Below are positions 8,131-34,256 of a stretch of 45,618 nt of DNA, one piece after another. The stretch spans positions 1 through 45,618 of the forward strand of contig JAJDCM010000176.1 in the NCBI GenBank assembly GCA_029260825.1, read 5' to 3'. The notes under the pieces were generated by a model. It did no database searches and was not told the origin of the DNA. It saw nothing but the letters and a program-made list of their open reading frames with translations. A program made the position numbers and the translations under genes. Source of the stretch: Planctomycetota bacterium (GTDB taxonomy: Bacteria > Planctomycetota > JACOTG01 > JAJDCM01). How positions within the stretch are numbered: the stretch's first letter is position 1; every line of letters begins with the position of its first letter.

Positions 8131-9119
8131 GGCTTTGACCTCTCCTGCTCCGAGACCGCTACCTCGGCCAAACGGTCCGAATCTCCTCCACCAAACGTGA
8201 TGAACCACAGGAGACGCACCTTCCAGGCTGCCTCGGTGGACTCGACTCCAAACAGCCCCAACAGGAGGGAGAGCTGACTCCGATCCGGGTCATTCGAGTA
8301 GGAGAAGATCAGAGGAATGGTGAAATCTGAAAGCTCCTGGGCACGGCTCGAAACCACCGCCGAAATCTGATGCTTCTCCCCCTCCCGGTACAGGGTCAAG
8401 AGAAGCTCGGCCTTCTCGTCCGCCGCCCGAATTTCGTCAAGAAGAGCCTGGGGGTCGTCAATGCTTCGATCATCAACGTGGGAGATGAGATCTCCAAACC
8501 GAATCCCGGCCATTCGAAAAGGACTCGACAGAGAAAGACCGACCACCACCGCCCCCGCTCCCGGCGCAAGGCCAACTCGCCGGGATTCGACTTCGGTAGG
8601 GGTTCGCACGACAACTCCAACTCGTTGCTCCTCCCGGATCCGCTCCACCTCTTCCCGATCAGGAAGACGAAGCCGATCCGTGATGGCAAGCTCGGTTTCA
8701 TGCTCCACCCCGCCCCGGTCATAGACAACCCGAAGCTTTTTCCCGGCCCCCGATTCCAGCTCAAGCTTTCGCCACTGACTCTTCCACGCAAGAGCAATCG
8801 GTTCCTTCCCCGAGGGAATCACCTCGAGCAGGACATCCCCGACCGCCAATCCAGCGGCCATCGCCGGAGAATTCTCGACAATCCGGTCGACGATCAGCCC
8901 TTCCGGATCACCCACGAGCTGGTCCAGGGTCTTTCGAGCATCCTCGACATAAATCCCGGTGAACCCGCCCCGGGGCAGTTTCTCTCGCAACGCCTCGTCA
9001 TCCGGTTCGACGAAGGCTTCAAGAGGCTCCTCCAGATCGCGCAAGGGGGGCGATTCGATGGGAATAGAACTACAGCCGAAGACCAGGAGCGAGCTGATCA
9101 AGATAATTAGCCATCTCAA
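8127..9119 (-). CDS. PDZ-domain periplasmic (lipo)protein
   Basis: Two PDZ-like segments (IVENSPAMAAGLAVGDVLLEV; RMAGIRFGDLISHVDDRSIDD). The likely start is TTG at 9119-9117, giving MRWLIILISSLLVFGC (signal/lipobox-like). A GGAGGAGG SD sits 8 nt upstream. The TTG overlaps the ABC gene TGA as 'TTGA'. The alternative ATG at 9176 would add 19 aa with no signal features. Confidence 0.55.
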   Translation of the reverse strand: MRWLIILISSLLVFGCSSIPIESPPLRDLEEPLEAFVEPDDEALREKLPRGGFTGIYVEDARKTLDQLVGDPEGLIVDRIVENSPAMAAGLAVGDVLLEVIPSGKEPIALAWKSQWRKLELESGAGKKLRVVYDRGGVEHETELAITDRLRLPDREEVERIREEQRVGVVVRTPTEVESRRVGLAPGAGAVVVGLSLSSPFRMAGIRFGDLISHVDDRSIDDPQALLDEIRAADEKAELLLTLYREGEKHQISAVVSSRAQELSDFTIPLIFSYSNDPDRSQLSLLLGLFGVESTEAAWKVRLLWFITFGGGDSDRLAEVAVSEQERSKP

Positions 9120-10966: not shown

Positions 10967-11178
10967 GGTCACCAATGTGCATCGCGAAAACCTTGAGTCA
11001 AGTGGAGCTTTTGAATCTACGCAGCAAGGGCCAATACGTTACGAGGTCTCGCCCATTCCAAGGTATGGGGGAAAGAAACCCAAAATTTGACCAGGATTTG
11101 CCCCCGACTCGATTCCCGTCCCGAATTCCGGTTACACTGCTGACTCACTCATCCGGCAGCTCCAGCTACGAGGATCCG

Positions 11179-12441
11179 ATGGCCCAAGTCACTTCTGAAA
11201 TCACCCGACTCAAGCAAGTTCTCGTTCATGAACCCGGTCCGGAAGTGGACCGGATGGTTCCGGAGATGATGGAGGAGCTTCTCTTCGACGACATCATCTT
11301 CGGCGACGAGGCCCGAAACGAACACGCCATCTTTCGAGGCGTGATGGAAACCCTGGGGATCGAGATCCTGGAGTCCCGAGACCTCTTGCAGGATGTCCTG
11401 GAGAACCCGGAGGCGACATCCTGGCTCCTTGATATCCTCGTTGGAAGCCCCGCCGGGAACCTCAAGACGCGCATGGAATCCATGCCCCCCAAGGACTTGG
11501 CCAACATGCTCATCACCGGGCTTCGACATCACCCGGAGCAGGGAGACCTCGATGCGGACAGTCTCTTTGAGATCTCCCCCGTCCCGAACTGGTGCTTCCA
11601 GCGGGACCCCCAGGTCATTCTTGGCAACGGCGTGATGTTCTCCGCCATGGCGACACCCGCTCGCTGGCGAGAAACTCTTCTCACCCGGACCATCTTTCGC
11701 TATCACCCGAGGCTCTCCTCCGTGCCGGTCATTCTCGACCCGCTTCAACCCCAGACGGCAAGGCTACTCTTCATGGGACTGAAGAGCCCCCATTTTGAAG
11801 GCGGCGACTTTCTGGTTCTTGGCAAAGACGTGGTGGCGATCGGGCTCTCGGAGCGAACGAATCGGGCAGGGGTCCAGCTCGTCGCCAAGTCCCTCTCCCG
11901 CCTCGATGATGGACCCAGATGGCTCATCGTGGTCGATCTCCCCCGAAGACGCTCCTACATGCATCTTGACACGGTCTTCAATCCGGTGGATCACAACTCT
12001 TGCCTTGCTCACGCTCCGGTCATGCTACCCGGAGGAAGTGAAGAGGCGGCCATCTTCGAGATTGACCTGAAAGACAAGAATCTTGAACCAATTCCCCGGG
12101 GGAGCTTCCTGGCAACGTTGAAGAACAGAGGCATCGACTACGAGCCGATTCCCTGCGGAGGGCCCGATCCGGTAGCTCAACAGCGAGAGCAATGGACCGA
12201 TGGATCCAACACCCTCGCCCTGGCTCCGGGAGTCGTGACCCTCTATGAACGGAACGTGCAAACGACCCACGAGCTTTCGCGGCACGGGTTCTCGGTGGTC
12301 AATGCCAAGGACGTGATCGACAAGACGGTGAAGATCGATCTTGACCATCCAAAAAGGACGTGCATCCTCCTACCCAGTCATGAGATCTCCCGGGCACGTG
12401 GTGGGCCTCATTGCCTCTCTCATCCCCTGGAGCGAGAATAG
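11179..12441 (+). CDS. arcA: Arginine deiminase
   Basis: 421 aa from the ATG at 11179 (GAGGAT SD 5 nt upstream). The N-terminus SEITRLKQVLVHEPGPE and the LLFDDIIF...ARNEH segment are ADI signatures. C-terminal GGPHCLSHPL carries the amidinotransferase-superfamily catalytic Cys. The upstream 68 codons of the track ORF lack homology. Confidence 0.8.
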   Translation: MAQVTSEITRLKQVLVHEPGPEVDRMVPEMMEELLFDDIIFGDEARNEHAIFRGVMETLGIEILESRDLLQDVLENPEATSWLLDILVGSPAGNLKTRMESMPPKDLANMLITGLRHHPEQGDLDADSLFEISPVPNWCFQRDPQVILGNGVMFSAMATPARWRETLLTRTIFRYHPRLSSVPVILDPLQPQTARLLFMGLKSPHFEGGDFLVLGKDVVAIGLSERTNRAGVQLVAKSLSRLDDGPRWLIVVDLPRRRSYMHLDTVFNPVDHNSCLAHAPVMLPGGSEEAAIFEIDLKDKNLEPIPRGSFLATLKNRGIDYEPIPCGGPDPVAQQREQWTDGSNTLALAPGVVTLYERNVQTTHELSRHGFSVVNAKDVIDKTVKIDLDHPKRTCILLPSHEISRARGGPHCLSHPLERE

Positions 12442-13029: not shown

Positions 13030-14229
13030 ATGTTGAAGCTTCTTTCCAACGCTGAGGTCTTTGCTCCCGAGCCACTGGGTCAAAAAAACCTCCTAGTCGC
13101 AGCCGGGAAGATCGTGTGGATGGGATCCTCACCCCCGAGCCCGCTGCCCTCTTCGATCGAAATCGAGGAAACCGACCTGACCGGACACCGACTCATCCCC
13201 GGGCTGATTGACTGTCACGCCCACCTGACCGGTGGCGGTGGAGAGGCCGGCTTCAAGAGCCGTGTCCCTCCCCTTGGCGTCAGTCAGTTCACCCGCGCCG
13301 GAACAACCACGGTTGTCGGAGTCCTGGGTACGGACGACATCACCCGAGGGACGGCGGGATTGGTGGCGGCCGCCCGAGGTCTTCGGGAAGAGGGACTCTC
13401 CGCATTCTGTCTCACCGGGGGCTATCACGTACCACCCGTCACCCTCACCGGAAGCGTTCGGGATGACATCGTGCACGTTGATCCCATCATCGGCGTGGGC
13501 GAAATTGCCATCAGCGATCACCGATCCAGTCAGCCGACACGAGATGAGCTTCTGCGTATCGCAGCAGAAGCTCACGTAGCCGGAATGCTCAGCGGCAAGG
13601 CGGGCCTCGTTCACCTTCACCTGGGAGATGGGGACCGAGGGCTGAAGATGATCGAAGAGGCTCTCGATCAAACCGAGCTTCCGGCACGAGTTTTTCATCC
13701 AACCCACGTGAATCGAAAAAAGAAGCTCTTCGAACAAGCCCTCGGCATGACGAAGCGGGGAGTGACGGTCGACGTCACAGCGTTTCCCGTGGAAGAAGGA
13801 GAAGATGCCTGGTCCGCGGAAGACGCGGTGGAGCGCTTTGTTCGGGCAGACCTATCTCCCCACCGATTGACGGTGAGTTCGGACGCAGGTGGGAGCCTTC
13901 CTTGCTTTGACCGGGAGGGTCAGCTTGTCCACTATGACGTTGCTCATCCCCAGGCAGTCGGCCATTGCCTCCAGAAGCTCCTTTCCCGGGGGCTTCCCCT
14001 CGAGGTGGTGCTCCCCTTCTTTACCTCGAACGTCGCCGAACAGTTTCGCTTCGAGCATAAAGGTCGAATCAGAGTGGGAGCCGACGCCGACCTTGTTGCT
14101 CTCGATGCCAAAGCGTTTCCAGGCCATGTGATGTGCGCAGGCGAATGGCACGTTCGCTCGGGAATCCTTGCCCGCAAGGGAATGTTTGAAAAAGACAAAA
14201 CCAATTCTTCCGGAGCTCATCGTGAATAA
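13030..14229 (+). CDS. iadA: Isoaspartyl (beta-aspartyl) dipeptidase
   Basis: Begins MLKLLSNAEVFAPEPLGQKNLLVAAGKIVWMG, followed by the amidohydrolase HxH metal site (IDCHAHLTGGGGE). Length of about 400 aa is typical of IadA. Start ATG at 13030; the track start at 12994 is a TTG. Confidence 0.8.
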   Translation: MLKLLSNAEVFAPEPLGQKNLLVAAGKIVWMGSSPPSPLPSSIEIEETDLTGHRLIPGLIDCHAHLTGGGGEAGFKSRVPPLGVSQFTRAGTTTVVGVLGTDDITRGTAGLVAAARGLREEGLSAFCLTGGYHVPPVTLTGSVRDDIVHVDPIIGVGEIAISDHRSSQPTRDELLRIAAEAHVAGMLSGKAGLVHLHLGDGDRGLKMIEEALDQTELPARVFHPTHVNRKKKLFEQALGMTKRGVTVDVTAFPVEEGEDAWSAEDAVERFVRADLSPHRLTVSSDAGGSLPCFDREGQLVHYDVAHPQAVGHCLQKLLSRGLPLEVVLPFFTSNVAEQFRFEHKGRIRVGADADLVALDAKAFPGHVMCAGEWHVRSGILARKGMFEKDKTNSSGAHRE

Positions 14230-15031
14230 GAGAGGTTTTATTGTTCCCATCGGAGGCGCGGAAGAAAAGGTTCGCGGAAGATCGATCCTTCGTCACTTCA
14301 CTGAAATCTGTGGAGGGGAGCGAGCAAAAATCGCCATCATCCCGACCGCATCCAGCCTTCCGGACAGCGGACCTCGGTACGAAGAAGTGTTCAAAGACCT
14401 GGGAGTTCAGGAAGCCACGTCTCTTCCTTTTGAGTCGAGAGCCGACTGTGCCCGAGAAGATCTTCTCTCGGTGCTGCGGGAAGCCGACGGCGTCTTTCTT
14501 ACCGGCGGGAACCAGCTCAAGCTCTCGACCACCTTGGGTGGGACTCCTGTTTCCGAGATCCTTCGGGAACGGAATGCCACTGGACTCCACGTGGGCGGGA
14601 CTTCAGCCGGCGCCGCCTATCTCTGTGAACACATGATCGCCTGCGGAGAGGAAGGCCCGACTCCTCGCCCGTCCAGCGTCACTCTGGCCCCTGGCCTTGG
14701 GCTGACCCGACATGTGATTGTTGACCAGCATTTTCGACAGCGAGATCGCATCGGTCGGCTCCTCACGGCTCTTTCCTACAATCCTTTTCCGGTGGGAATC
14801 GGTCTCGATGAAGATACGGCGGTCTTCATCGATGCCAACGATGTCATCGAGGTGCACGGTACAGGTGGACTCACCGTGGTCGACCCGCAAGACATGGAGT
14901 TTTCGTCCATGGATTCCGCAAGACCGGACGACCCGGTCTGTGTCATCGGGGTCAAGCTGCACATCCTCGTTGACAGCTGCAAATACCACCTCGTCGAGCG
15001 AACAGCGAGTCCGGCAGTTTCCCGCTCCTGA
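14222..15031 (+). CDS. cphB: Cyanophycinase (peptidase S51)
   Basis: Motifs GFIVPIGGAEEK, GGNQLKL and GTSAGAAY (Ser nucleophile) match CphB. GTG start at 14222 has GGAG 6 nt upstream and overlaps the iadA stop by 8 nt. About 269 aa. Confidence 0.8.
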   Translation: MNKRGFIVPIGGAEEKVRGRSILRHFTEICGGERAKIAIIPTASSLPDSGPRYEEVFKDLGVQEATSLPFESRADCAREDLLSVLREADGVFLTGGNQLKLSTTLGGTPVSEILRERNATGLHVGGTSAGAAYLCEHMIACGEEGPTPRPSSVTLAPGLGLTRHVIVDQHFRQRDRIGRLLTALSYNPFPVGIGLDEDTAVFIDANDVIEVHGTGGLTVVDPQDMEFSSMDSARPDDPVCVIGVKLHILVDSCKYHLVERTASPAVSRS

Positions 15032-16569: not shown

Positions 16570-16592
16570 TCTCAAAACCAGCTGTTTTGAGA
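16570..16592. promoter_or_regulatory. Perfect 9-bp inverted repeat TCTCAAAAC-N5-GTTTTGAGA (candidate operator) upstream of the Cys-rich secreted protein gene
   Basis: tctcaaaac cagct gttttgaga lies about 50 nt upstream of the ATG at 16641. A third CTCAAAA copy follows directly. The surrounding 348-nt intergenic region is lower in GC. Confidence 0.3.
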
Positions 16593-16640
16593 ACTCAAAA
16601 TCGGGCAATGAGTCAGGGTTCCAATAAGGAGGTAAGAGGA

Positions 16641-17879
16641 ATGAAGAATCGTAAGTACTCCATCTGTTGTTTGATTGTGCTTCTCTTTCTAGCGGGCGCG
16701 GTCGCACCACCGGCTCGGGCAGTCATCCCCATCCTTGATGGTCTGGATGGCCCCTGCTGTCTCCCCGCTCAGGTCAATCTCCCCCAGTTTCCTCCCATGG
16801 TGCTGGACAGCAAGTACGTCTGCTGGCGAAACTGCGGCCCCGGACTCTCCGGAAACGTCAAGGCCACGTTGACCCCGGTACCAGCCGCCTGCGGGATTTA
16901 TCTCCTGCGCTACACGGTCACGAATCAGGGCGGAAACTTGACCGCCTGGTCCGGTACTCTCGTCATGACCTACTCCAGGACATGGCTCGAAGCCAGGGTA
17001 GATCCTGCCAACCCGGACATTCAGATCTGGCGATTCCTCTTGAATGGAGACCTCAAGGTTTCAAACGAGCTCATCGATCGTTTCGGCAACAACACCTGCG
17101 TGGTTGCGCCCTGCGCCCCCGTTTTCAACCGCAACATCCACGTGTCCGGCTACATCGACTACGCTCAGGATTGCAACACCGGCCAGTTCGAAATCGCCTA
17201 TGCTCTCGACCACGATTGCGATCTCTACGAACATCAGAGCGGTTTCAGTTGCCGCCAGGGAAACTACCACTCCAATCAGTCCTACTCGTGGGTCGGACCT
17301 TCCGCCGGATTCCAGTGTGAGCCCGGTCTCCCGGCTGCCGATGGACCTGTCTTCTGCGAGGCATTCCGCAACTACAACTTCAACATGCCGCTGAACAATA
17401 TCTGCGAGACCGAACAGCCCATCCTGCAGGGGGCCATTCAAACAGAAGCAGAATTCTGCCCCTGCACTTCGGTACCTGCGGCCCCTCAATACAAACTCCA
17501 GCAGTACGGAGCGATGACCGCTTGCAACAGCCTCTCGAACTCCGTCAACGTGGATGTCTTTCCCGGACTCCTTTCCAAAAGCATCGGCTTCTGGACGGAT
17601 CCCGCGCGCTATCCCGGACCCGAGCTATTGCACCTGGAACGGAGCATGGCGGATTACGTCGATGGCTGCAGCCAACAAGGCTCCATCCGACATTTCCGGG
17701 GCGTGATGACCCAGGAGGGCTATTTCACTTACAAGCTGACTCCCGCGGGGTTCCTTCCTCTTCCTCCCAGAATGCTCGATCTTGGGGACGCCACCTTGCC
17801 CAACATGAACGGGCAGCCTCTCATCGGAAAGCGCACCATCTCCGAGCGAATGAAGTACTTCTGGATCGACTTCTTCTAG
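16641..17879 (+). CDS. Hypothetical secreted cysteine-rich protein (no family recognised)
   Basis: Strong SD AAGGAGG 8 nt before the ATG at 16641. Signal peptide MKNRKYSICCLIVLLFLAGAVAPPARA. More than 20 Cys in 412 aa, including CC, CxxxC and CPC pairs. It is an isolated gene with its own terminator. Confidence 0.6.
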   Translation: MKNRKYSICCLIVLLFLAGAVAPPARAVIPILDGLDGPCCLPAQVNLPQFPPMVLDSKYVCWRNCGPGLSGNVKATLTPVPAACGIYLLRYTVTNQGGNLTAWSGTLVMTYSRTWLEARVDPANPDIQIWRFLLNGDLKVSNELIDRFGNNTCVVAPCAPVFNRNIHVSGYIDYAQDCNTGQFEIAYALDHDCDLYEHQSGFSCRQGNYHSNQSYSWVGPSAGFQCEPGLPAADGPVFCEAFRNYNFNMPLNNICETEQPILQGAIQTEAEFCPCTSVPAAPQYKLQQYGAMTACNSLSNSVNVDVFPGLLSKSIGFWTDPARYPGPELLHLERSMADYVDGCSQQGSIRHFRGVMTQEGYFTYKLTPAGFLPLPPRMLDLGDATLPNMNGQPLIGKRTISERMKYFWIDFF

Positions 17880-17927
17880 AGATTGCCAGAATGGGGTAAG
17901 CCCCCACGGCAGAGTCGAGAAAACAAA

Positions 17928-17962
17928 AGCCCCGTGTGCAATCGCTGCACCGGGGCTTTCCT
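17928..17962 (+). terminator. Rho-independent terminator-like hairpin
   Basis: agccccgtgtgca-atcgc-tgcaccggggct is GC-rich with an imperfect 12-bp stem, followed by TTTCCT. It begins 48 nt after the stop at 17879. Confidence 0.4.
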
Positions 17963-18033: not shown

Positions 18034-19011
18034 ATGAATCCACTGCTCAAGGTCCTACTCCTCTGCGCACCCGCCTTCGCGCTGGGTGCCGTTGCGGCAA
18101 CCGTACTTCGCCCGGCGCCGGTCATGCCCCCTCTCAATCAAGAAGAAGCAGGGGCCTCATCGATCGACGAAGCATCCAGAGAAAAAATGGAGCAGAAGCG
18201 AAAGAAGGAGTTGCTGCTACTCAAGGAAGAGAATGCTCGCCTCCTGATGGAAATTCATCGACTCCGATCCCAGCTGCACCAAGAAACTGAAGATGACAGG
18301 GATGAAGATGACCGGGAAAAACCTTCCACTCCGAATCCAGGTCAACTCGATGTCGCCTCCTCCCGTCGATTCGACGACTCCTCCGACACGACAGAGCTGA
18401 GACCGACTCTGCTGTGGCTACGAGAACTCTCGCCGGACCGGTTCGGCGACTTGACGGCCCAGGAACTCCTCAACATGGGAGAGCTTGATCTTTCCGGTCT
18501 CGAGCTAAGGGCCGAAGACATCGCACACCTGATGCACTTCGAGTCTCTCCACAATTTGAATTTGCGAGAGACCAACATCACCGATGAAGCACTTGAAGAA
18601 CTTCAAGACATCGACAACCTGAAGACACTCGGTCTTCGACAATCCAACATCACCGACGAGGGGCTTTCCCACTTGACGAATCTGGATAGTCTTCGCGAGC
18701 TCGACCTGAACACGACCGGGATCACCGATGAGGGCATCGCCCACCTTCAGGAGATGTCGAACCTCCGCTCCCTTCGGCTCAACTACACCCGGATCACAAA
18801 CGACGGTCTATCTCTCCTGACAGATCTGAATTCCCTGGAGCGCCTTGATCTTTGGGGGACCGCCATCACCGATGCGGGCATGTCTCACATCTGGGACCTT
18901 CCCGCCCTGAGACACCTTGAAATCGGAGCCACATCCATCACCAAGGAGTGGGTCACCCGGTTCAAGGAAGCTCACCCCAACTGCACGGTAAGAAGTCCTC
19001 ATGGTGATTGA
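18034..19011 (+). CDS. Membrane-anchored leucine-rich-repeat (LRR) protein with coiled-coil region
   Basis: ATG at 18034 gives MNPLLKVLLLCAPAFALGAVAATVL (signal/anchor), followed by a charged coiled coil. Six or more LRRs follow (LxxLxLxxTxITDEGLxHL ...). The gene overlaps the ECF sigma start by 11 nt. Confidence 0.65.
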   Translation: MNPLLKVLLLCAPAFALGAVAATVLRPAPVMPPLNQEEAGASSIDEASREKMEQKRKKELLLLKEENARLLMEIHRLRSQLHQETEDDRDEDDREKPSTPNPGQLDVASSRRFDDSSDTTELRPTLLWLRELSPDRFGDLTAQELLNMGELDLSGLELRAEDIAHLMHFESLHNLNLRETNITDEALEELQDIDNLKTLGLRQSNITDEGLSHLTNLDSLRELDLNTTGITDEGIAHLQEMSNLRSLRLNYTRITNDGLSLLTDLNSLERLDLWGTAITDAGMSHIWDLPALRHLEIGATSITKEWVTRFKEAHPNCTVRSPHGD

Positions 19012-19546
19012 AGACTGGGGCGCCTTCTTCGAGCGATACCGTCCCATGGCCCTCCGTTTCGTTTCCGGCCTCACCCGGAATCAAGACCTTGCCGAAGACA
19101 TCTTCCAGGACGCGGCACGCTCCGTCATCGAGCGTACAGCGACCGGATCCCTCAAGTTCGAGTCCCCCGCTCATGCCCGAAACTATCTCTTTCGAGCCCT
19201 CCATAATCTTGCGATCACAGCCGCCACATCCCCCCGGTCTCGGTCGGTGCAGACGGACCAGAACCCCGCCGAGGTCGTCCTCGACACCCGGCCCGAACCG
19301 GATCAGGCCATGGCGGAAACGGAGGAAAGTCGGGCCCATGACCAGACATTGAGCACTCTTACTCACGCCCTTGAAGCTCTTCCCCAGCGGGACCGAGAAG
19401 CCCTGAGTCTGCGTTTTGGGGAGGGGCTCGGATTCAGAGAAATGGCCCAGCGCACCGGCCTTGCCATCTCCACCCTCCAGTCCCGGGTAGAGTCGGCCCT
19501 CGGAAAGATCCGAAAAAAAGTCGGAAAGACGAAGAGCGACGAGTAG
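19001..19546 (+). CDS. ECF (sigma-70 family) RNA polymerase sigma factor
   Basis: Region 2 (RYRPMALRFVSGLTRNQDLAEDIFQDA) and region 4 HTH (REALSLRFGEGLGFREMAQRTGLAISTLQSRV). 181 aa. Confidence 0.8.
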   Translation: MVIEDWGAFFERYRPMALRFVSGLTRNQDLAEDIFQDAARSVIERTATGSLKFESPAHARNYLFRALHNLAITAATSPRSRSVQTDQNPAEVVLDTRPEPDQAMAETEESRAHDQTLSTLTHALEALPQRDREALSLRFGEGLGFREMAQRTGLAISTLQSRVESALGKIRKKVGKTKSDE

Positions 19547-19592
19547 TGTGAGTTAGAAACCGTCCCATCGAGGCAAGAGGTGAACGAGAGAC

Positions 19593-20339
19593 ATGGCATG
19601 TAACTCCCGGCAGTCCGAGAGAATCGGCGATTTCGCCGCAGGAGCGCTGAACGCCTCGGAAGCCGCAGAAATTCTTACGCACGTGGAAGAGTGCCCGGCC
19701 TGCTCGGAAGAATTCGACCTGGTTGCGGCCCTCCTTCACAAGACCCAGCCACCTCCGCTCACCCTGTTCAAGAATCGCTCCTGGCTCGTTCGACACCGCC
19801 TTGCCGTTGGTCTCGCAGCATCTATCCTGGCCGTCATTTCGATCGTATACGGGACGAACCTTGGGGATGAGACCTCGAACGAAACCCACCTGGAGATCGC
19901 AAGCCTCGCCGAGCTAGACCCGCTTCCCAGGCCGTCGTCCACGTTGCGCGGATCGGGAAACAATGCCCTGGAAGACGAACTCGAATCAGCTCTCCAGAGC
20001 TATACCGAGGGGAACTACGCGGATGCAGCTTCCTCCCTCCAGAAGGTGCTAGCCCGGAACCCGGATCATCCCTTGCCGAACCTCTACCTTGGGATTTCAC
20101 TGACCCAGATGGGCTCGTACCAGGAGGCGGTCACGTTTCTTGCAAGGTGCGCGAAAAACAGCGAGGGCCTCCTTCAGGAACGCGCCCTCTGGTATCAGGC
20201 GAACGCTCACCTGAAACTTGAAGAGCTTGACCCGGCCCGATCCATCCTTACCAGGATTCTGGCGATCGAAGGCGACTACGAGATCAACGCATCCGAGAAA
20301 CTCCTGCAAATCATGGGGCAAGCCGGGGCTGAAGAATGA
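19593..20339 (+). CDS. Anti-sigma factor with ZAS zinc motif, one TM helix and a C-terminal TPR-like domain
   Basis: HVEECPAC matches HxxxCxxC. The TM segment is LAVGLAASILAVISIVYG. The C-terminus has TPR-like helices (NYADAASSLQKVLARNPDHP...). It lies immediately downstream of the ECF sigma gene. Confidence 0.7.
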   Translation: MACNSRQSERIGDFAAGALNASEAAEILTHVEECPACSEEFDLVAALLHKTQPPPLTLFKNRSWLVRHRLAVGLAASILAVISIVYGTNLGDETSNETHLEIASLAELDPLPRPSSTLRGSGNNALEDELESALQSYTEGNYADAASSLQKVLARNPDHPLPNLYLGISLTQMGSYQEAVTFLARCAKNSEGLLQERALWYQANAHLKLEELDPARSILTRILAIEGDYEINASEKLLQIMGQAGAEE

Positions 20340-23300
20340 GGAGGTACGGAGCGTTCCTTTCGCTCCTGTTGGTTGGGTTTTTCGCCGCCTCCTTGTCGGC
20401 GATCCAGAGTTCAGCAGCTCCCCGAGAAGATCCTCAGATCCAGTTCACGAGGGTGGTCTTCGGTGCTCTTTCTCAAGGCGATTCATCCCGAGTTTCCTCG
20501 TTGATCAAAGAGAATCCTTACCGGATCGAATCCGTCATCAACGTTCTTCTCACCCAGGCGTCAGGTCCAAGCAGCACCGCCGAAATCGAAAACGCAGCCC
20601 GCAATCTCGCCAGAATTGCCGATTCAACCCTCGAGAATCGTGAATTCCTGGCCACCGTTCTCCTGCACATCGAGGGAGGGGAAACAGCCAAGCAGAAGAG
20701 ACTCGACCATGAGCGACTGTATGGTGAGGCCGTCGAAAAGCTTCAGCAAGAAAAGCTCCCTGAAGCGAAATCTCGAGTCGATAAAGCGCTGCAACTCGCC
20801 AGCACTCTTGCACAACCTTTTCTTTCCTCTCGATCCCTCCGGCTTCGTGCACACATTGAAAAAAGACTGGGCGACCTTGAAAACGCCATTCAAGATCTGA
20901 ACCGCGCCATCGCCCTCGATCGCCCTCGAGGAGCCAAGCTGGATCTCCTCGCCAATCTTCTTCTCCTGGCGGAAATCAAATCCATGGAGGGTGATCTTGA
21001 GATCGCCGTGACGGCAACGATCGAAGCGGTCGATCTGGCTCCCCTTGTTGGTGAACCATTTCGTCTACCCCAGCTTCTTCTTCAGCTCTCCTACCTTCAT
21101 GCCAGGCGCGGAAACCGAGAGGAATCGACTCGGGCCATCGACATGGCTCACGAATCAGCCGAGGAGCGGAACGACATCAATGGTCTCGCATCGGTCCTTG
21201 GGGCTAAAGCCTCCCTGGCAACGACCTGTGGAGACTACACCGCCGCAATCCGAGCCTATCTCCTGGCAAGAACTCTCCATCAAGATCTGGGCGACCGAGA
21301 AAACGAGACATCAACCCTCATCCACCTGGGCGGTCTCTATTCGGAAATCGGCCGGTTCATCGATGCAGAAGATGTCCTGAAGGAAGCTAGCGAGCGTCTC
21401 CAGGACCCAGGCCACCCTTCTCTGGCTCTTCTTCTCGGGCGCACACGATCCAGCCTTGGGCTCACGTTCCTTGATCAGGGAAAAACCAAGCAGGCTCTGA
21501 GCCAATTCGATCTTGCCGAACAGGAGCACCGGCGCTCTGGAGATGAAGTTTGGGCCATGGAAACAAAGCGGCACCGGGCCTACGCATATCTGGAGCAAGG
21601 TCGGCACGAAGAGGCTCGATCTGAATACCGGACAATCCTCTCCAATCCACGAACACCCGCCCTTGCTCGGGCCCTTTCCCGGACGGGAATCGGCACAAGC
21701 TTCGAAATGGAAGGAAAAGCAACCGAAGCCCTCGCCGCCTACCAAGCCGCGTTGATCGAGCCCCACCCGTTTCCCGAAGGTTCCTGGCGTGCGCGCTACG
21801 GAGTGGGCCGAATTCACGAGGCACGAGGTGAAACGTCCCGAGCAAAAGACGCATACCTCGCCGCACTCAAAGAACTAGACACTCTACAGCGATGGCTTCC
21901 GGGAACAGCCGACCGGCAAACCTATCTTGGAGATGCAAAGGGGCTTCATCGAAGAGCATCGAGACTCCTCGCAAAAGCCGGTGAGAATAATGCATCCTTT
22001 GTTGAAGCAGAAGCTGGAAAGGCGCGACTCCTCCTTGAGATGCAAGGCCATTCCGGCTTGCTCTCCCCCGCCCCTCTTGCCTCACCTGCCCGAGAAAAGC
22101 GCCAGAAAACCGAAGCCGACCTCGTCTTTCTGGAAAGACAACTGCGTGTCGAACCAACATTCAACTCCTCTTCAACATCAACGTCGAAAGGGTTGGAAGA
22201 GAAGCTAAAAAGCGTGCGGATCGAGCATCAACAGGCCCTTCTTGCCGCCCAGATGGAGAGTAGCTGGGCCCAAGAGCTTCAAGGAAGAGCACTCGACGTC
22301 TCGCTCGAGTCCGTCCAACAGGCTCTTCCCCCCGACGCAGCTCTGATCGAATACCTGATCGGGTCGGAAGGATCCGCCGCCTGGGTACTGACTCGACGCA
22401 CTGCCCGATTCATCAACCTCGGGGCGAACGAAGCCGCCGTTACCGGATGGATTGATCGAATCTACCGCCCCATCGAACTCCTTGCTGCAAAAGAAACCGA
22501 TATCGCAAACCTTGGTTTTGATGCCAGGGCAGCCGGCCTCCTTCATGCAACACTGGTCAAGCCCCTCCTCGCCTCGATCGGAAAGAGCACCCTCCTCTAC
22601 ATCGTTCCCGACGGCCCGCTCCTTCGTCTTCCATTCTCCCTCCTGGTGAGCGCTCACAAGAAGCAACCGGTACGTCCTGGGGAGCTGTACGCTCACCACC
22701 ACGGCTGTCGATTTCTGATCGAAGACTTCGCCATCTCCTACCTTCCAACCGCGGGAATCCTGCTATCGAAGAAGTCTCCCGGTTCTTCGAGGGGAAACAC
22801 CGGGGTGGTGATTGCTTCTCCCGACCCTCTACCGCCGGGGGCGAAGCATCTCGCAGCTGCACTATCGGAGGCAAGAGCGGTAGCAAAAGAAACCGGCGCT
22901 TCCATGTTCACTCTGGGAAAAGCGACGGAAACCAGGGCAAAGGAAGCCCTGTCGAACGCCCCATGGATACACCTTGCGACTCATGGATTCCTCTCTGATC
23001 GCCGCCCCCTCTACTCCCGCATTGCCCTCGCTCCCGGACCAGACGACGACGGATGGCTTCACGCCTTTGAAGTCGAAAGGCTCAAACTCACTTCCCGCCT
23101 GGTCATCCTTTCCGCTTGCGAAACTGCGGAGGCCGCAGAGCGAACCTCCGGATGGCTCGGTCTCTCAAGATCCTTCCTTCTGGCGGGGGCGACTTCAGTC
23201 GTTGCATCTTTCTGGGTGGTCGACGATGAAGCAACACGATGGCTCTTCCCACGATTCCATCGTGAGCTTGCAAATGGACTGGCTCCTGCCATGGCCCTCC

Positions 23301-23404
23301 AGAGAGCACAGGTGGAGATTCTCCGCAACAAACGACGGGGATCCCTTCACTTCGTGCATCCATTCTTCTGGGCTGGCTTCATCGCGATGAGCTCGGATCA
23401 CTAG
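20336..23404 (+). CDS. Secreted TPR-repeat protein with C-terminal CHAT (caspase-like) peptidase domain
   Basis: ATGA overlap with the anti-sigma stop. Signal peptide MRRYGAFLSLLLVGFFAASLSAIQSSA. About 600 aa of TPR-like repeats. The C-terminal CHAT domain carries the His/Cys dyad (WIHLATHGF ... LVILSACET). Confidence 0.8.
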   Translation: MRRYGAFLSLLLVGFFAASLSAIQSSAAPREDPQIQFTRVVFGALSQGDSSRVSSLIKENPYRIESVINVLLTQASGPSSTAEIENAARNLARIADSTLENREFLATVLLHIEGGETAKQKRLDHERLYGEAVEKLQQEKLPEAKSRVDKALQLASTLAQPFLSSRSLRLRAHIEKRLGDLENAIQDLNRAIALDRPRGAKLDLLANLLLLAEIKSMEGDLEIAVTATIEAVDLAPLVGEPFRLPQLLLQLSYLHARRGNREESTRAIDMAHESAEERNDINGLASVLGAKASLATTCGDYTAAIRAYLLARTLHQDLGDRENETSTLIHLGGLYSEIGRFIDAEDVLKEASERLQDPGHPSLALLLGRTRSSLGLTFLDQGKTKQALSQFDLAEQEHRRSGDEVWAMETKRHRAYAYLEQGRHEEARSEYRTILSNPRTPALARALSRTGIGTSFEMEGKATEALAAYQAALIEPHPFPEGSWRARYGVGRIHEARGETSRAKDAYLAALKELDTLQRWLPGTADRQTYLGDAKGLHRRASRLLAKAGENNASFVEAEAGKARLLLEMQGHSGLLSPAPLASPAREKRQKTEADLVFLERQLRVEPTFNSSSTSTSKGLEEKLKSVRIEHQQALLAAQMESSWAQELQGRALDVSLESVQQALPPDAALIEYLIGSEGSAAWVLTRRTARFINLGANEAAVTGWIDRIYRPIELLAAKETDIANLGFDARAAGLLHATLVKPLLASIGKSTLLYIVPDGPLLRLPFSLLVSAHKKQPVRPGELYAHHHGCRFLIEDFAISYLPTAGILLSKKSPGSSRGNTGVVIASPDPLPPGAKHLAAALSEARAVAKETGASMFTLGKATETRAKEALSNAPWIHLATHGFLSDRRPLYSRIALAPGPDDDGWLHAFEVERLKLTSRLVILSACETAEAAERTSGWLGLSRSFLLAGATSVVASFWVVDDEATRWLFPRFHRELANGLAPAMALQRAQVEILRNKRRGSLHFVHPFFWAGFIAMSSDH

Positions 23405-23548
23405 CCAAACTCCCTGCGTTCCAGGTTTTCTCGAGAAAGTCTCGGAAACTTCGCCTCTCCCAGGAAACAAGGAGTGAGAGCCGGAACCATCGGGCAAATC
23501 GACCATCAGCCAGGAGCCAGAGGCATCCTGAAATCAGGAGGGTGAATC

Positions 23549-26500
23549 ATGCAAAACTTTCGATCACAAACCCGTGGGCGGGTGACACTGGGCCTCGCGA
23601 TGATCAGCTTGTCCGTCCTGGGGTTCAGCTCGTCAGGAAGCGCCCAGGAGAGAGCGAAAGCACGAGATCTTGAACCTCGCGTTGCATTCAGAAGGCCACA
23701 GCTGGACCTGCTGTCATCCGCAGACGCATCGGATGTGATCGTGGTGAAGTTCCTCGAGGGAACCGGCATTCGGTTTTCAGGAAAGCGCGCCTCGTCTCGC
23801 ACTCGATCCAGCGTCGGCGAACTCCAGGCCGTCGTCGATCAGGTCACAAGCCAGGTCGAAAAGATCTTTGCCAGACCGGAGAGTGTCCTTTCACAAGAGA
23901 AACGGGTCGGTGAATCCAGATCAGGTCGTGAGCTCGCCGATCTCAACTTGTTCTACCGATTCCACGTTCAACGTCATCGCGATCCTCTCGACGCTCTGGA
24001 AAGTATTCTCTCCCTTCCCCAGGTGGAAACGGCCTACTTCGCACCCAGGCCCGCCCCTTCTCCCACCGATCTCCCTCCGGTCACCCCGACCTTCAACGGA
24101 CAACAGAACTATCTGGGTCCGGCGCCTCAAGGAGTGGACGCTCAATACGCATGGAGTCTCCCAGGAGGAAGAGGAACCGGAGTGCGAGTCTGTGATATTG
24201 AATACAACTGGCACACTGGCCACGAGGAATTCAACGATGTTGGAATCACCCTCCTTGGCAACGCGCCGCTTGTTCCCCCCAACCTCAACACCGCCCAGGA
24301 AACCTACCACGGCACCGCATCTCTTGCCGTCGTTGGTGCCGATGACAACGGTTACGGAACCCGGGGAATCGCCAGTCAAGCCAGACTGTACATCACCGGC
24401 TCCTTCACCCAGCAAGGAGGATACAACCCGGCCAACGCCATCAATCTTTCGGCCGGAGCCCTTCCCGGCGGAAGCGTCTTGCTCCTGGAGATGCAAGCCT
24501 GCGCCGATCAGTTCTGCAACGTCCTCGTTCCCATCGAGTGGTTCGCGGCAGAATACGCCGCGATCGCCAGTGCGGTAGCCAACGGAATCATCGTGGTCGA
24601 GGCTGCCGGCAACGGGGGTAACGACCTCAGTGACACCAATCAATTCGGCAACGCCTTTCGCCGATCCGTTCAAGATTCCGGAGCCATCATGGTTGCCGCC
24701 GGAGACTCCCAGGGGAACCCGCTCTTCTTCACCAACCACTGCACGACGGATTCCCGCATCGACGTCTGGTCCTGGGGAAACAGCAATGTGGTTACCGCAG
24801 GATATGGCGACCTCTTCTACGGAGGATCGTCGGACAATCAAGCCTACACGACCACCTTCGGTGGGACTTCGTCAGCGTCAGCAATCGTTGCCGGTTGCGT
24901 CGCCAACTTGCAGGGTATCGCCCAGCAAATGCTTGGAAAGACTTTGACCCCGGCGGAGGTGAGGAGCATCTTCACGACGACCGGAACCCCTCAGGCGGTA
25001 AGCGCCATGCTGATCGGGTCTCAACCCAACTTGCGAACGGCTACCGCCTATTTGATGGATCAAGAGATCCAGCTCCTACCCTTTCAGTTCGTTCCCGGCA
25101 TGCCATCCCCCAACCCCCTTTCTCCCGGCGAGATCCTGGCTACCGATCTCAATCGGGACGGATCTCCCGAGCTCATCTTCAGCTACCAGGACAACCTCAC
25201 TTTCACGGGAACCATGGAAATCGTGTTGAACAACGGTGGTGTCTACGGACCCTCCATCCCTTTCCCCCTCGGATTCGGACAGCCCTTCCTCGCAACGGGC
25301 GACTTCAATCAGGACGGGAATCCGGACATCGCGGCCACAACATCAACCCTGGTGACCGTGTTCCTCGGAGATGGATCCCTCGGATTCCTGAACGTAATCC
25401 CAGTGCCTCTTCCCGTAGCTGGATTCGGGACCGAGATAGCCGATTTCACCGGGGATGGAAAACCGGACATCGCGGTCGCCCACTCCGGCCTCCTCAGCGT
25501 TCTTGTTGGGGACGGCCTGGGTAACTTCACGTTCACAAGCTTTGCCTATCCCGCACAAAACTGGATCGACGTCGAGGCCTGTGACATGACGGGAGATGGA
25601 GCGATCGACTGGTGCCTGACGGGGAGTGATACGACGATCCTCGTGAACGACGGTTCGGGAACCCCGGTCGCCAATCCGTTTTCCACCAATGCTCCTGGAA
25701 CCTCGATCGTCACCGGTGACCTGGATCAAGACGGACGAAAAGACATCGCGGTTCTCAGCCCGGGAGGCGGAACTCTCACGAGCTTCAAAGGAGATGGGGC
25801 TGGATTGGCAACTCAAACTTCGGTGACCTCATTTCCCCTGAGCATTCTTGGTAATCAGGTCATCTTGCAAGACTTCAATGGAGATCTCCTTCTGGACGCC
25901 GCCATCTCCGGAGTTCAAACCCCCATTCCCGGGGGTGGTACCCAGGATGGACCCGCTCTCCTGCTCGGAGACGGGCGAGGAGCATTCGGGCCTCCCGGCG
26001 GATCGTTCTCTCTTGGTTTCGGCTTCGGAGGCATTGCAGCAGGGAATCTTGCCGGACTCAATCAAACCGACGTTGCCCTCGCGGTTCTGAATCCAGGGGG
26101 GTTTGTTGATGTCGAGCTGTTCGTGAACCCGATCTTCCAAAAACGAATGAAATGTCGTACGGGCAATGTGAATGAAACTCTGGGAGTTGCCGTCGACGTC
26201 CTCTCAGTGAGCGGTCAAACGGGAGATGTTGATCGAATCCTCCGGCTTTCCCCGTCGACCACGTTTACCATCGACATGGCTGCACCACAAAACGGGCCGG
26301 CGTCCGCTCCTTACGTCCTGTACGCAGTGCGAGGACAGATTTCCTTCACGGATGAAACCAACCATCCATTCAACATCGGAACCACGTGCTTCCCCACCCC
26401 CCTCTCAGGCGGGACTCTTCCCAATACGGTTGTCGTGGCAAATAGCCTTGGCTACACGGGACTCCTGGGCACCCCTCTTTTGAATCGAGGTCCGGCTCCC

Positions 26501-26629
26501 GGGACGGTGGCCACGGTGGTTGGCGGGCTTCCGGCAGGATCAAGGCTCTTCTTACAAGGGTTTATCCGAGACAACAACGGGCAGATTGCAATCACGGTAA
26601 CAAATGGAGTGGAAGTGCAAGTTTGGTAG
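23549..26629 (+). CDS. Secreted subtilisin-like serine peptidase (S8) with C-terminal FG-GAP/VCBS beta-propeller repeats
   Basis: AGGAGG SD 7 nt upstream of the ATG. Signal peptide present. Catalytic triad in D-H-S order (VRVCDIEYNW; HGTASLAVVGA; GGTSSASAIVAG). The C-terminal half carries FG-GAP motifs (DLNRDGSPELIF, DFNQDGNPDIAA, DFTGDGKPDIAVA, DLDQDGRKDIAVL). Confidence 0.8.
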   Translation: MQNFRSQTRGRVTLGLAMISLSVLGFSSSGSAQERAKARDLEPRVAFRRPQLDLLSSADASDVIVVKFLEGTGIRFSGKRASSRTRSSVGELQAVVDQVTSQVEKIFARPESVLSQEKRVGESRSGRELADLNLFYRFHVQRHRDPLDALESILSLPQVETAYFAPRPAPSPTDLPPVTPTFNGQQNYLGPAPQGVDAQYAWSLPGGRGTGVRVCDIEYNWHTGHEEFNDVGITLLGNAPLVPPNLNTAQETYHGTASLAVVGADDNGYGTRGIASQARLYITGSFTQQGGYNPANAINLSAGALPGGSVLLLEMQACADQFCNVLVPIEWFAAEYAAIASAVANGIIVVEAAGNGGNDLSDTNQFGNAFRRSVQDSGAIMVAAGDSQGNPLFFTNHCTTDSRIDVWSWGNSNVVTAGYGDLFYGGSSDNQAYTTTFGGTSSASAIVAGCVANLQGIAQQMLGKTLTPAEVRSIFTTTGTPQAVSAMLIGSQPNLRTATAYLMDQEIQLLPFQFVPGMPSPNPLSPGEILATDLNRDGSPELIFSYQDNLTFTGTMEIVLNNGGVYGPSIPFPLGFGQPFLATGDFNQDGNPDIAATTSTLVTVFLGDGSLGFLNVIPVPLPVAGFGTEIADFTGDGKPDIAVAHSGLLSVLVGDGLGNFTFTSFAYPAQNWIDVEACDMTGDGAIDWCLTGSDTTILVNDGSGTPVANPFSTNAPGTSIVTGDLDQDGRKDIAVLSPGGGTLTSFKGDGAGLATQTSVTSFPLSILGNQVILQDFNGDLLLDAAISGVQTPIPGGGTQDGPALLLGDGRGAFGPPGGSFSLGFGFGGIAAGNLAGLNQTDVALAVLNPGGFVDVELFVNPIFQKRMKCRTGNVNETLGVAVDVLSVSGQTGDVDRILRLSPSTTFTIDMAAPQNGPASAPYVLYAVRGQISFTDETNHPFNIGTTCFPTPLSGGTLPNTVVVANSLGYTGLLGTPLLNRGPAPGTVATVVGGLPAGSRLFLQGFIRDNNGQIAITVTNGVEVQVW

Positions 26630-26657
26630 TAAGGACGTGGTCGTCGAAGAAGGCCAT

Positions 26658-26687
26658 CCGGCACGGTTAGAAAGAGAGCCGTGCCGG
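26658..26687. terminator. Perfect 9-bp stem hairpin between convergent genes (candidate bidirectional terminator)
   Basis: ccggcacgg-ttagaaagagag-ccgtgccgg lies 29 nt after the S8 peptidase stop and 48 nt before the minus-strand ORF stop at 26735. Confidence 0.4.
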
Positions 26688-26734
26688 ATTGGATCATTTG
26701 ACGTGAAAGTACTAGCCCGGATTATTCATCCGGG

Positions 26735-27037
26735 CTAGCCGCTGGGATCGAGTTCATACAGGCCATCGCCCGAGTATCGGAGCCGACCTTGCCGGACAAG
26801 CTCTTCCCAGACCTCTTCCCGATATCGATCGGGAGGTGTAATCGCGGCAATTTTTGATTGGCGCCCACCGGTCAAATGCCCTCCTCCAAGACCTGACTCA
26901 TCATCGAGAAGCATGATCTTCAGCCTCTTACGAAAAGCCTTCATGGCCCGCTTGAGCTCCTCTCGGGTCGGTGCTTGCGCATCATCTTCAGACGTGGTGT
27001 CTTCAGATCCGCCTTGATCAGACTCTGGGTCGGTCAT
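26735..27037 (-). CDS. Hypothetical small acidic protein (100 aa)
   Basis: ATG at 27037 with a GAGGAG SD 9 nt upstream. The acidic N-terminus is DPESDQGGSEDTTSEDD. No recognisable family. Confidence 0.4.
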   Translation of the reverse strand: MTDPESDQGGSEDTTSEDDAQAPTREELKRAMKAFRKRLKIMLLDDESGLGGGHLTGGRQSKIAAITPPDRYREEVWEELVRQGRLRYSGDGLYELDPSG

Positions 27038-33836: not shown

Positions 33837-34256
33837 ATGACTCAACGAAAAACCCGCAAGAAAACCCGCCTGCGCAAGAACCTCTCCGATCTCGAGCTAT
33901 CCATCATGAACGTTGTTTGGGATCTGCAGGAATGTTCTTCGAATGAGGTCATTGACCGCTTTCAAAAGCAGCGCCGGCTGGCGCCTACAACGATCCGCAC
34001 CGTTCTCACGAACATCGAGAAGAAGGGCTACCTCGAACGGGTTCCAAGCGTCGAGCGTGGATATCGCTATCGCCCCACGGTAAGCCGGCAAGACGTCGCG
34101 AACACCTCTCTCAAAAGCCTTGTCTCCAACTTGTTCAAAAACTCACCGCGCCTCGCTCTCCTCCATCTTCTAAAAGACGAAAGGCTTGACGATCAAGATC
34201 TTGAGGAAGTCCGAAAGTTGATCCTGGCATCTTCGCCCAAGAAAGGAAAGAAGTGA
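33837..34256 (+). CDS. BlaI/MecI/CopY-family transcriptional repressor
   Basis: 139 aa. Winged-helix motif LSDLELSIMNVVWDLQECSSNEVIDRF...TTIRTVLTNIEKKGYLER. GTGA overlap with the downstream M56 gene. Confidence 0.8.
   Translation: MTQRKTRKKTRLRKNLSDLELSIMNVVWDLQECSSNEVIDRFQKQRRLAPTTIRTVLTNIEKKGYLERVPSVERGYRYRPTVSRQDVANTSLKSLVSNLFKNSPRLALLHLLKDERLDDQDLEEVRKLILASSPKKGKK

Follow-up and report, generated by a model that had tools for sequence, protein, structure and literature searches.

A conserved cassette of ECF sigma factor, anti-sigma factor, TPR-CHAT and subtilase genes in a Planctomycetota bacterium, and its possible kinship with DdvA/DdvS

The contig JAJDCM010000176.1 of a Planctomycetota bacterium (assembly GCA_029260825.1; its whole length, positions 1 to 45,618, is referred to here as the window) contains a cluster of five genes in which those for a sigma factor of the extracytoplasmic function (ECF) type and its zinc-binding anti-sigma (ZAS) factor stand next to genes for two proteases, one carrying a caspase-like CHAT domain behind tetratricopeptide repeats (TPRs) and the other belonging to the S8 (subtilase) family. 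This arrangement raises the question of how the sigma factor is controlled, and by which of its neighbors. An initial annotation, made from the letters of the DNA alone, had suggested an envelope proteolytic cascade in which the leucine-rich repeat (LRR) protein encoded by the first gene of the cluster acts as the sensor and the CHAT protein, the S8 peptidase or both cleave the anti-sigma factor. The idea of an envelope cascade controlling the sigma factor gains from the co-conservation of the genes, from the dyad of the CHAT domain, and from published precedents in DdvA (PMC11506125) and in Csx29/Csx30 (PMC10028731), while the part given to the LRR protein is not supported. The reading that we favor, with a probability of about one half, is that the cluster contains a split, two-polypeptide counterpart of the DdvA/DdvS system of Myxococcus xanthus, in which an exported TPR-CHAT protein would control the anti-sigma factor and its His-Cys dyad would cut the linker of that protein.

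All five open reading frames (ORFs) are co-oriented on the forward strand, with the coordinates of the initial annotation, and every domain that it had named is recovered with Pfam and NCBIfam. They encode the LRR protein (18034-19011, 325 aa), the ECF sigma factor (19001-19546, 181 aa), the anti-sigma factor (19593-20339, 248 aa), the TPR-CHAT protein (20336-23404, 1022 aa) and an S8 peptidase with an FG-GAP region (23549-26629, 1026 aa). The ATG of the sigma factor gene at 19001 precedes the stop codon of the LRR gene (19009-19011), producing an overlap of 11 nt, and 46 nt separate the sigma factor stop codon from the anti-sigma start. The sequence ATGA at 20336-20339 is common to the TGA of the anti-sigma factor gene (20337-20339) and the ATG of the CHAT gene, a 4-nt overlap; both overlaps are as first described. 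The S8 gene had been placed 145 nt further on, behind a strong Shine-Dalgarno sequence. The latter is indeed present as AGGAGG, 7 nt 5' of the ATG, and the spacer measures 144 nt. The sigma factor, anti-sigma factor, CHAT and S8 products are identical to the calls recorded in the public collection. The start codon of the LRR gene is uncertain, as the product that begins at 18034 differs from the recorded one.

The sigma factor matches the sigma70-ECF model TIGR02937 (E=2.9e-21; 75.8 bits against a cut-off of 42.9), and the only domains matched within its 181 residues are Sigma70_r2 and Sigma70_r4_2, which places it among the ECF (group IV) sigma factors. The protein encoded directly 3' of it matches zf-HC2 (E=1.2e-6) and TPR_19 (E=1.2e-10). 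Residues C3, H30, C34 and C37 of this anti-sigma factor are invariant among its aligned relatives (alignment A5), as are M1-A2, and a CHCC zinc site is predicted; an H-x3-C-x2-C motif with an upstream fourth ligand in an N-terminal helical bundle identifies the protein as a class I ZAS factor. Its three-helix anti-sigma domain (residues 5-51) is followed by a transmembrane (TM) helix (approximately residues 65-89), a linker, and a TPR domain (residues 126-245) with the signature blocks LYLGI, ERALWY and GDYELNA. Hydropathy places the single TM segment at residues 70-88, directly behind K60, R62, R66 and R68, and this basic cluster predicts an N-in/C-out orientation with the zinc finger inside and the TPR domain outside the membrane, as had been proposed. 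The AlphaFold2 model has the three N-terminal helices, the TM helix and a confidently predicted TPR domain of 3.5 repeats (pLDDT above 90), and its linker is non-helical with mostly moderate-to-low confidence.

This juxtamembrane linker contains the motif LA..P...(V/L/T)LR(G/S/A) (residues 105-119; 19905-19949, forward strand), a candidate docking or cleavage site in which L105, A106, P110, L118 and R119 are invariant columns of the same alignment. An exhaustive profile search assigned 70 representative clusters to the anti-sigma family at E<=1e-30; the linker motif was found in 79 of 145 family representatives and HxxxCxxC in 136. Since the best 150 representatives are all 110-328 aa long, none of these is fused to a CHAT domain. 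Elsewhere in the window, a 319-aa single-TM protein (42726-43685, forward strand) has an anti-sigma-like N-terminus and no Pfam match; its gene is convergent to that of a second CHAT-domain protein described below.

The TPR-CHAT protein begins with a signal-peptide-like segment (residues ~1-27), continues through ~630 residues of helical/TPR repeats (TPR_12, E=2.3e-16, and multiple other TPR families), and ends in a CHAT domain (residues ~665-1022) that matches PF12770 from position 3 to 287 of the 289-position profile (E=7.5e-57). By hydropathy, its N-terminus consists of MRR, a hydrophobic core and then SSA|AP, from which export is predicted. A Tat signal was considered and rejected because MRRYGAF does not match S/T-RRxFLK. 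The catalytic residues of the CHAT fold occur in the expected order, the His as H883 in HLATHG (22982-22984) and the Cys as C928 in ILSACET (23117-23119), in columns that align with Csx29, and the protein is a putative caspase-like protease. Two features on which the initial annotation had made its proposal depend are thus present, the first as a signal-peptide-like N-terminus and the second as an intact His-Cys dyad. The same annotation had treated an exported CHAT protein as exceptional; signal-like N-termini are found in 39 of 62 full-length CHAT homologues, and that impression does not hold.

The AlphaFold2 model of the TPR-CHAT protein (pLDDT 79.7, pTM 0.70) was compared to the PDB with Foldseek, and the top match was DdvA (8rot_A; E=7.2e-15 over 998 alignment columns), with separase and Csx29 next. 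When the PDB was searched by sequence with the complete CHAT or anti-sigma protein, or with profiles of their full length, generic TPR proteins dominated the results. Only a profile restricted to the CHAT domain was informative, and its matches were to Csx29 (E=2.5e-13), to an unnamed chain of 991 residues with a CHAT domain in entry 8rot (8rot_B; E=3e-10) and to separase. Two other CHAT proteins may be recorded here. The window encodes a second one at 43731-45578 on the reverse strand (615 aa; PF12770, E=2.6e-38), which has a His in HIIGHS and a Cys in LSSCEG and no obvious signal peptide; its upstream region runs past the end of the window. In locus L097 (1-9948), the gene for P0027, a TPR-CHAT homologue with a signal peptide, immediately follows a GmrSD-like gene and the BREX genes PglZ and BrxL and has a PDZ-S41 peptidase gene 3' of it, so that here an exported CHAT protein is encoded in a defense island.

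Four of the five genes recur together elsewhere. In loci L090 and L098 the sigma factor, anti-sigma factor, CHAT and S8 genes follow one another in the same order and orientation, with amino acid identities to the window of 40%, 39%, 37% and 31%, respectively, in L090, and of 49%, 38%, 39% (over 1002 aa) and 47% in L098. Loci L091 and L092 have the sigma factor, anti-sigma factor and CHAT genes, after which the contigs end. The sigma factors of all four loci are 40-49% identical to that of the window, and the cognate anti-sigma gene lies directly 3' of the sigma factor gene in the window, L090, L091 and L098. In L090, L092 and L098 the anti-sigma gene is followed by a TPR-CHAT orthologue with 36-39% identity, and in these three loci, as in the window, the 4-nt overlap between the two genes is kept. 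All four full-length CHAT orthologues of the cassette retain the His-Cys dyad and a signal-like N-terminus. The S8-FG-GAP gene is present in each of the three cassettes whose downstream side is visible, in every case behind a spacer of 111-144 nt. The path to L098 was an independent one that began with the S8 protein and led through its homologue P0079, which is encoded directly after the sigma factor, anti-sigma factor and CHAT genes of that locus. The GC content of the cassette loci ranges from 56.5% to 73%, indicating that they come from different organisms. Judged by sequence and gene order, the sigma factor, anti-sigma factor, TPR-CHAT and S8-FG-GAP genes form a conserved four-gene cassette. 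Separately from its cassette, L098 has a second, unrelated pair of sigma factor and zf-HC2 anti-sigma genes ~5.5 kb downstream (18659-20141).

A word-indexed search with the CHAT protein gave nearest homologues that are 24-30% identical and missed the 36-39% orthologues, which were reached via the anti-sigma and S8 searches, and a scan of genome contigs with the CHAT protein alone gave no match. Loci anchored on the aldehyde dehydrogenase gene downstream of the cluster (<=55% identity, many phyla) had nothing that significantly matched the LRR, anti-sigma, CHAT or S8 proteins, and only L045 and L088 showed a weak sigma-like match, two in all. Among more distant relatives, a ZAS anti-sigma gene lies upstream of a TPR-CHAT gene, directly or across one small gene, in L006, L007, L009 (twice) and L095. 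In L006 and L007 the pair follows a sigma-like gene and has the same 4-nt overlap, and in L095 a small extra gene intervenes. L008 has a sigma factor gene and a CHAT gene, with an S8 gene two genes downstream. The two arrangements in L009 (1183-10760) are tandem triads, each composed of a sigma-like gene (~320 aa), a zf-HC2 anti-sigma gene (~290 aa) and a TPR-CHAT gene.

The system to which this cassette is best compared is DdvA/DdvS of M. xanthus (PDB 8rot; PMC11506125, PMC6061681). DdvA is a single protein in which a ZAS domain and a TM helix are joined by a flexible linker to a periplasmic scaffold/TPR/CHAT region (PMC11506125), and it has been described as the only characterized anti-sigma factor with a TPR-CHAT domain. 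In both systems an ECF sigma factor is paired with an anti-sigma factor that has a CHCC zinc domain and one TM segment, and the zinc site of DdvA (C6/H28/C32/C35) resembles that of the window protein. Both have a flexible juxtamembrane linker and a large extracytoplasmic helical/TPR solenoid that ends in a CHAT domain with a His-Cys dyad; in the window, solenoid and dyad are supplied in trans by the 1022-aa protein that is predicted to be exported. We favor the split DdvA/DdvS-type reading because the periplasmic domain of DdvA is the closest solved structure to our CHAT model, making the two structurally equivalent, and because the same parts are supplied here as two translationally coupled polypeptides.

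The two systems also differ. What is one polypeptide in DdvA is here encoded by two genes, one for a 248-aa anti-sigma factor with a small TPR domain of its own and one for a separate TPR-CHAT protein with its own signal peptide, and the same split is found in L090, L092 and L098. Given that the anti-sigma factor ends at the TGA at 20337-20339 and that the CHAT protein has its own ATG and signal peptide, the module does not belong to the DdvA family in the strict sense, whose fused members were found in a published survey only in Myxococcota and one Comamonas (PMC11506125). A frameshifted or pseudogenized DdvA-like fusion was considered as the origin of the split and rejected, since the CHAT ORF starts at an ATG with a signal peptide of its own and four loci keep the two genes apart. 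A subtilase with FG-GAP repeats is the constant fourth member of the cassette, and the vicinity contains no CBASS or CRISPR genes such as those that DdvA controls, so this is not a defense-island setting like that of DdvA.

The fourth member matches Peptidase_S8 (PF00082, E=6.6e-13) and FG-GAP_3 (E=1.3e-29) and consists of a subtilase domain, an FG-GAP beta-propeller and a C-terminal domain without an assigned family. Its catalytic triad occurs in the Asp-His-Ser order of S8 peptidases, with D216 in VCDIEYNW, H254 in HGTAS and S441 in GGTSSAS, and L090 and L098 share these motifs with the window. Its N-terminus combines three Arg with a hydrophobic core and GSA|QE, and by hydropathy export is predicted. 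Full-length homologues P0078-P0080 are 46-51% identical to it. The spacer between the CHAT and S8 genes contains a bipartite element, TCGGAAA-N14-GGAAACAAGG (23442-23472, forward strand), that is a candidate promoter or operator for the S8 gene. The same two blocks lie upstream of the S8 gene of L098 (9917-9942), where, as in the window, two GGAAA starts are 19 nt apart. The bipartite pattern occurs once in the window against an expectation of 0.13, and it stands at the orthologous place in L098 and L099. The 7-mer TCGGAAA by itself, which is common to four spacers, occurs in the window about as often as expected (14 times against 14.6), and the ungapped similarity of the window and L098 spacers is not above that of shuffled sequences; only the bipartite pattern with its fixed spacing stands out. 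Because the conserved element suggests separate and conserved regulation, the S8-FG-GAP protein is most likely an output transcribed from its own element, and less likely an enzyme that produces the activating signal or makes the site-1 cut.

FG-GAP genes are found near two of the cassettes as well: two tandem genes for FG-GAP repeat proteins (4808-6538 and 6535-8208, reverse strand) lie ~10 kb upstream of the cassette in the window, and two tandem FG-GAP genes lie ~7 kb upstream of that of L090 (1-2455). The proximity may be fortuitous or may reflect a looser tie to the subtilase with its FG-GAP propeller.

The first gene of the cluster behaves differently from the other four. The LRR protein (LRR_4, E=4.8e-11) consists of an N-terminal hydrophobic segment at residues 7-25, a charged, coiled-coil-like stretch and C-terminal leucine-rich repeats; the hydropathy of the segment is compatible with either a signal peptide or an anchor. 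A lipoprotein signal was rejected because LLLC lacks a small residue at position -1. The gene has no match in L090, L091, L092 or L098, and in L090, L091 and L098 the gene before the sigma factor gene encodes a luciferase-like, GHL10 or transaldolase protein instead. Because it is absent from every other cassette, we take the conserved unit to consist of four genes and the LRR gene to be a local addition, a putatively lineage-specific accessory outside the cassette. In L092, a gene for a 509-aa right-handed beta-helix protein (Beta_helix/NosD; 621-2150) lies between the sigma factor and anti-sigma genes. This parallels the LRR gene of the window, and genes for solenoid-repeat accessory proteins seem to have been recruited repeatedly.

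The authors of the DdvA study propose that a signal activates the CHAT dyad, that the linker is clipped in trans within a dimer, and that this licenses RseP (PMC11506125). We suggest that the same logic, with CHAT as the site-1 protease followed by a site-2 protease, might apply to the split system. At rest, the sigma factor would be held in the cytoplasm by the anti-sigma factor, whose TPR domain and conserved linker would be engaged outside the membrane by the co-translated and exported TPR-CHAT protein; we infer such a physical interaction, as we do the subsequent cleavage, the position of the cut and the involvement of a site-2 protease. Upon sensing of a signal by the large TPR solenoid, the His-Cys dyad would become active and cut the juxtamembrane linker in a site-1 step, LR|G/S being the candidate site, after which a housekeeping site-2 protease and cytoplasmic proteases would release the sigma factor. 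No RseP-type gene is present among the annotated ORFs of the window, and the site-2 protease is presumably encoded outside them. The S8-FG-GAP protein would be an obligate companion of this circuit, most probably as a regulated output and less probably as the producer of the signal, and the LRR protein would be an add-on of this lineage. A bolder form of the proposal makes the exported caspase-like CHAT protein a dedicated, trans-acting site-1 protease that cuts after the invariant Arg of LA..P...LR|G/S, within a two-protease extracytoplasmic circuit in which the subtilase/beta-propeller protein is a peptide-signal generator or a feed-forward output. In this fully specified form the proposal is speculative, and we consider it unlikely.

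Several observations weigh against a split DdvA/DdvS system. The CHAT protein is only ~16% identical to DdvA, with global TM-scores of 0.23-0.26, although low global scores are to be expected of long, flexible solenoids, and sequence profiles match Csx29 at least as well as DdvA. DdvA dyad mutants behaved like the wild type and still repress (PMC11506125). In the CHAT proteins of L006 (8001-11213; LAGYG) and L007 (8001-11189; LASYG) the catalytic His is replaced by Tyr and the Cys is kept. Catalysis is thus not universally required in sigma-linked CHAT proteins, and these two TPR-CHAT proteins are likely pseudo-proteases in a sensor role. Other TPR-CHAT homologues with signal peptides are found in unrelated contexts, beside a kinase, beside BREX genes or beside nothing notable. 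The element upstream of the S8 gene could not be tied to this sigma factor, and no matching motif lies upstream of the sigma factor genes; the regions 5' of the sigma factor genes and of the LRR gene likewise yielded no ECF-type promoter motif in common. The comparison of cassettes, moreover, covers only five loci.

Other readings of the cassette account for some of these observations. The TPR-CHAT and S8-FG-GAP proteins might both be regulated products that serve extracellular degradation, predation or surface remodeling, with the TPR domain of the anti-sigma factor itself acting as the sensor. ECF operons commonly contain their own targets, and both proteins have export signals and intact active sites in their sequences. 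The S8 catalytic domain, furthermore, has a great many relatives among secreted subtilases, a family whose C-terminal domains vary, and the exported proteins encoded beside sigma-linked CHAT genes are themselves varied, as seen in the Big_5/Tricorn-like propellers after the L006 gene, the beta-helix protein of L092 and the LRR protein of the window. However, the ATGA coupling of the anti-sigma and CHAT genes is kept across 36-39% identical orthologues and in distant families, as is typical of stoichiometric partners, and the CHAT protein is structurally equivalent to the sensor domain of a known anti-sigma factor. Some sigma-linked CHAT proteins also lack the catalytic His, which fits poorly with a degradative enzyme as the output, and we hold this reading to be rather unlikely. 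The same loss of the His in L006 and L007, where the sigma factor, anti-sigma factor and CHAT arrangement is nevertheless kept, would fit a role of the exported TPR-CHAT protein as a non-catalytic guard. It would then be a ligand-binding shield on the anti-sigma ectodomain, comparable to RseB on RseA, that blocks site-1/site-2 proteolysis until a ligand displaces it and does not use its dyad on the anti-sigma factor. RseP is kept off DdvA by the bulky TPR-CHAT domain, and repression persists in dyad mutants (PMC11506125). Together with the Tyr in L006 and L007, these mutants keep a guard role in contention, yet the strict conservation of His and Cys in four of four full-length cassette orthologues and the end-to-end match to the Pfam CHAT profile make it improbable in our estimation.

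The cascade originally envisaged, in which the LRR protein is a membrane sensor and S8 and/or CHAT cleave the anti-sigma factor in sequence to release the sigma factor, would make use of the 11-nt overlap of the LRR and sigma factor genes, of the N-terminal hydrophobic segment of the LRR protein with its outward-facing repeats, and of the co-conservation of the S8 gene with the cassette. Against it stands the lack of the LRR gene in L090, L091 and L098, in which the sigma factor gene comes after unrelated genes; in all related cassettes whose upstream side is visible, the proposed sensor is missing. The spacer of 111-144 nt, with its own conserved element, separates the S8 gene from the CHAT gene, and a position of S8 upstream of CHAT in the pathway is without support, so we give this cascade little credence. 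Lastly, DdvA, the closest solved structure, controls a CBASS/CRISPR island (PMC11506125), and a related TPR-CHAT protein with a signal peptide is encoded beside BREX genes in L097. The module might accordingly be an anti-phage regulator that senses a phage-derived periplasmic cue and, like DdvA/DdvS, switches on defense genes elsewhere. Against this stand the metabolic genes that flank the cassette in the window, L090 and L098, the lack of any defense-system family match for the five proteins in PADLOC other than one weak match to a generic TPR-repeat model, and the fact that the constant companion of the module is a secreted subtilase and not a defense system; an anti-phage function therefore seems very improbable.

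The split DdvA/DdvS-type reading can be set beside other systems in which CHAT proteases or regulated proteolysis meet a sigma factor. In Craspase, the TPR-CHAT protease Csx29 cleaves Csx30, an inhibitor of an ECF-type sigma factor, CASP-sigma, so that both the protease type and the role of the substrate are shared with our proposal (PMC10028731). Csx29 is a cytoplasmic protein that a CRISPR locus encodes and that Cas7-11 and target RNA activate (PMC10028731), whereas the CHAT protein of the window is predicted to be exported, has no CRISPR context, and is paired with an inhibitor that is a classical membrane ZAS anti-sigma factor. With the Csx29 model NF041237 scoring 20.7 bits against a cut-off of 300, identity with Craspase was rejected on these grounds. 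Published summaries of ECF54 of Actinobacteria (Huang et al. 2015) describe a conserved sigma factor neighborhood with subtilase and CHAT genes, for which proteolytic control has been proposed (PMC8999054), and thus provide a bioinformatic precedent for the triad of sigma factor, CHAT and subtilase. According to these summaries, ECF54 has no anti-sigma factor (PMC8999054, PMC7826278) and its neighborhood also includes a carboxypeptidase, whereas the window has a canonical ZAS anti-sigma factor; the cassette is accordingly set apart from ECF54 as there described. RseA (DegS/RseP) and RsiW (PrsW/RasP) are single-pass anti-sigma factors with a class I anti-sigma domain, with a CHCC site also in RsiW, and in their pathways an extracytoplasmic site-1 cut licenses a site-2 protease, as we propose here. 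Their site-1 enzyme is an unlinked serine protease or metalloprotease, unlike the operon-encoded, translationally coupled, caspase-like CHAT candidate of the cassette. Separase, a relative of CHAT proteases, cuts after Arg (PMC11506125).

A full-text literature search, whose coverage was incomplete, found CHAT, ECF and anti-sigma together only in papers on DdvA and on type III CRISPR (Craspase, type III-B), and found no description of a split cassette. Self-cleavage of DdvA by its CHAT domain is still a proposal because protease and substrate are one membrane protein with no known signal. The split version offers a simpler test, since its putative protease is predicted to be soluble and exported, the ectodomain of the anti-sigma factor is small, and the linker carries a conserved motif that is a candidate for cleavage. 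The loci described here indicate that modules of sigma factor, anti-sigma factor and TPR-CHAT are not confined to the defense islands of Myxococcota and exist in several divergent forms in environmental bacteria. The subtilase-propeller companion, the ECF54 neighborhood and the Csx29-Csx30-sigma system together suggest that caspase-like proteases are more widely linked to the control of ECF sigma factors. If the CHAT protein were indeed the site-1 protease, the cassette would represent a caspase-type proteolytic signaling cascade that operates beyond the cytoplasm in bacteria, and a widespread split form from which DdvA arose or which arose from it.

The boundaries of the unit are marked by two terminator-like stem-loops on the forward strand. 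The 5' one, at the end of the preceding gene (17926-17959), has a folding energy of -24.6 kcal/mol (z -3.8; none of 200 shuffles folds equally well), and the 3' one, after the S8 gene (26654-26692), has one of -27.3 kcal/mol (z -6.0). Folding of the CHAT-S8 spacer revealed no terminator-like structure, and scans of the window with Rfam and for tRNAs gave no matches. The generic TPR-repeat match found by PADLOC among the five proteins is to the CHAT protein, with E=0.00025. No defense island adjoins the cassette in the window.

Among the neighboring genes, that immediately upstream (16587-17879, forward strand) encodes a 430-aa protein with a signal-like N-terminus and no family match, whose start differs from the recorded one, and that downstream (26735-27037, reverse strand) encodes an acidic 100-aa protein, also without a family match. 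The window further contains a cyanophycin-synthetase-like pair at 35908-40504 (a protein with Cyanophycin_syn, ATP-grasp and Mur ligase domains, followed by a second Mur-ligase protein), an S51 peptidase of the cyanophycinase/dipeptidase E family (14168-15031) and an arginine deiminase (10975-12441), which suggests cyanophycin/arginine metabolism. A BlaR1-type M56 peptidase/sensor is encoded at 34253-35689 on the forward strand, another gene for signaling through a membrane protease. Near the start of the window (407-1447, forward strand), a protein ends in a Peptidase_S74 (endosialidase intramolecular chaperone) domain, which is usually found in phage tail-fiber-like or self-cleaving surface proteins.

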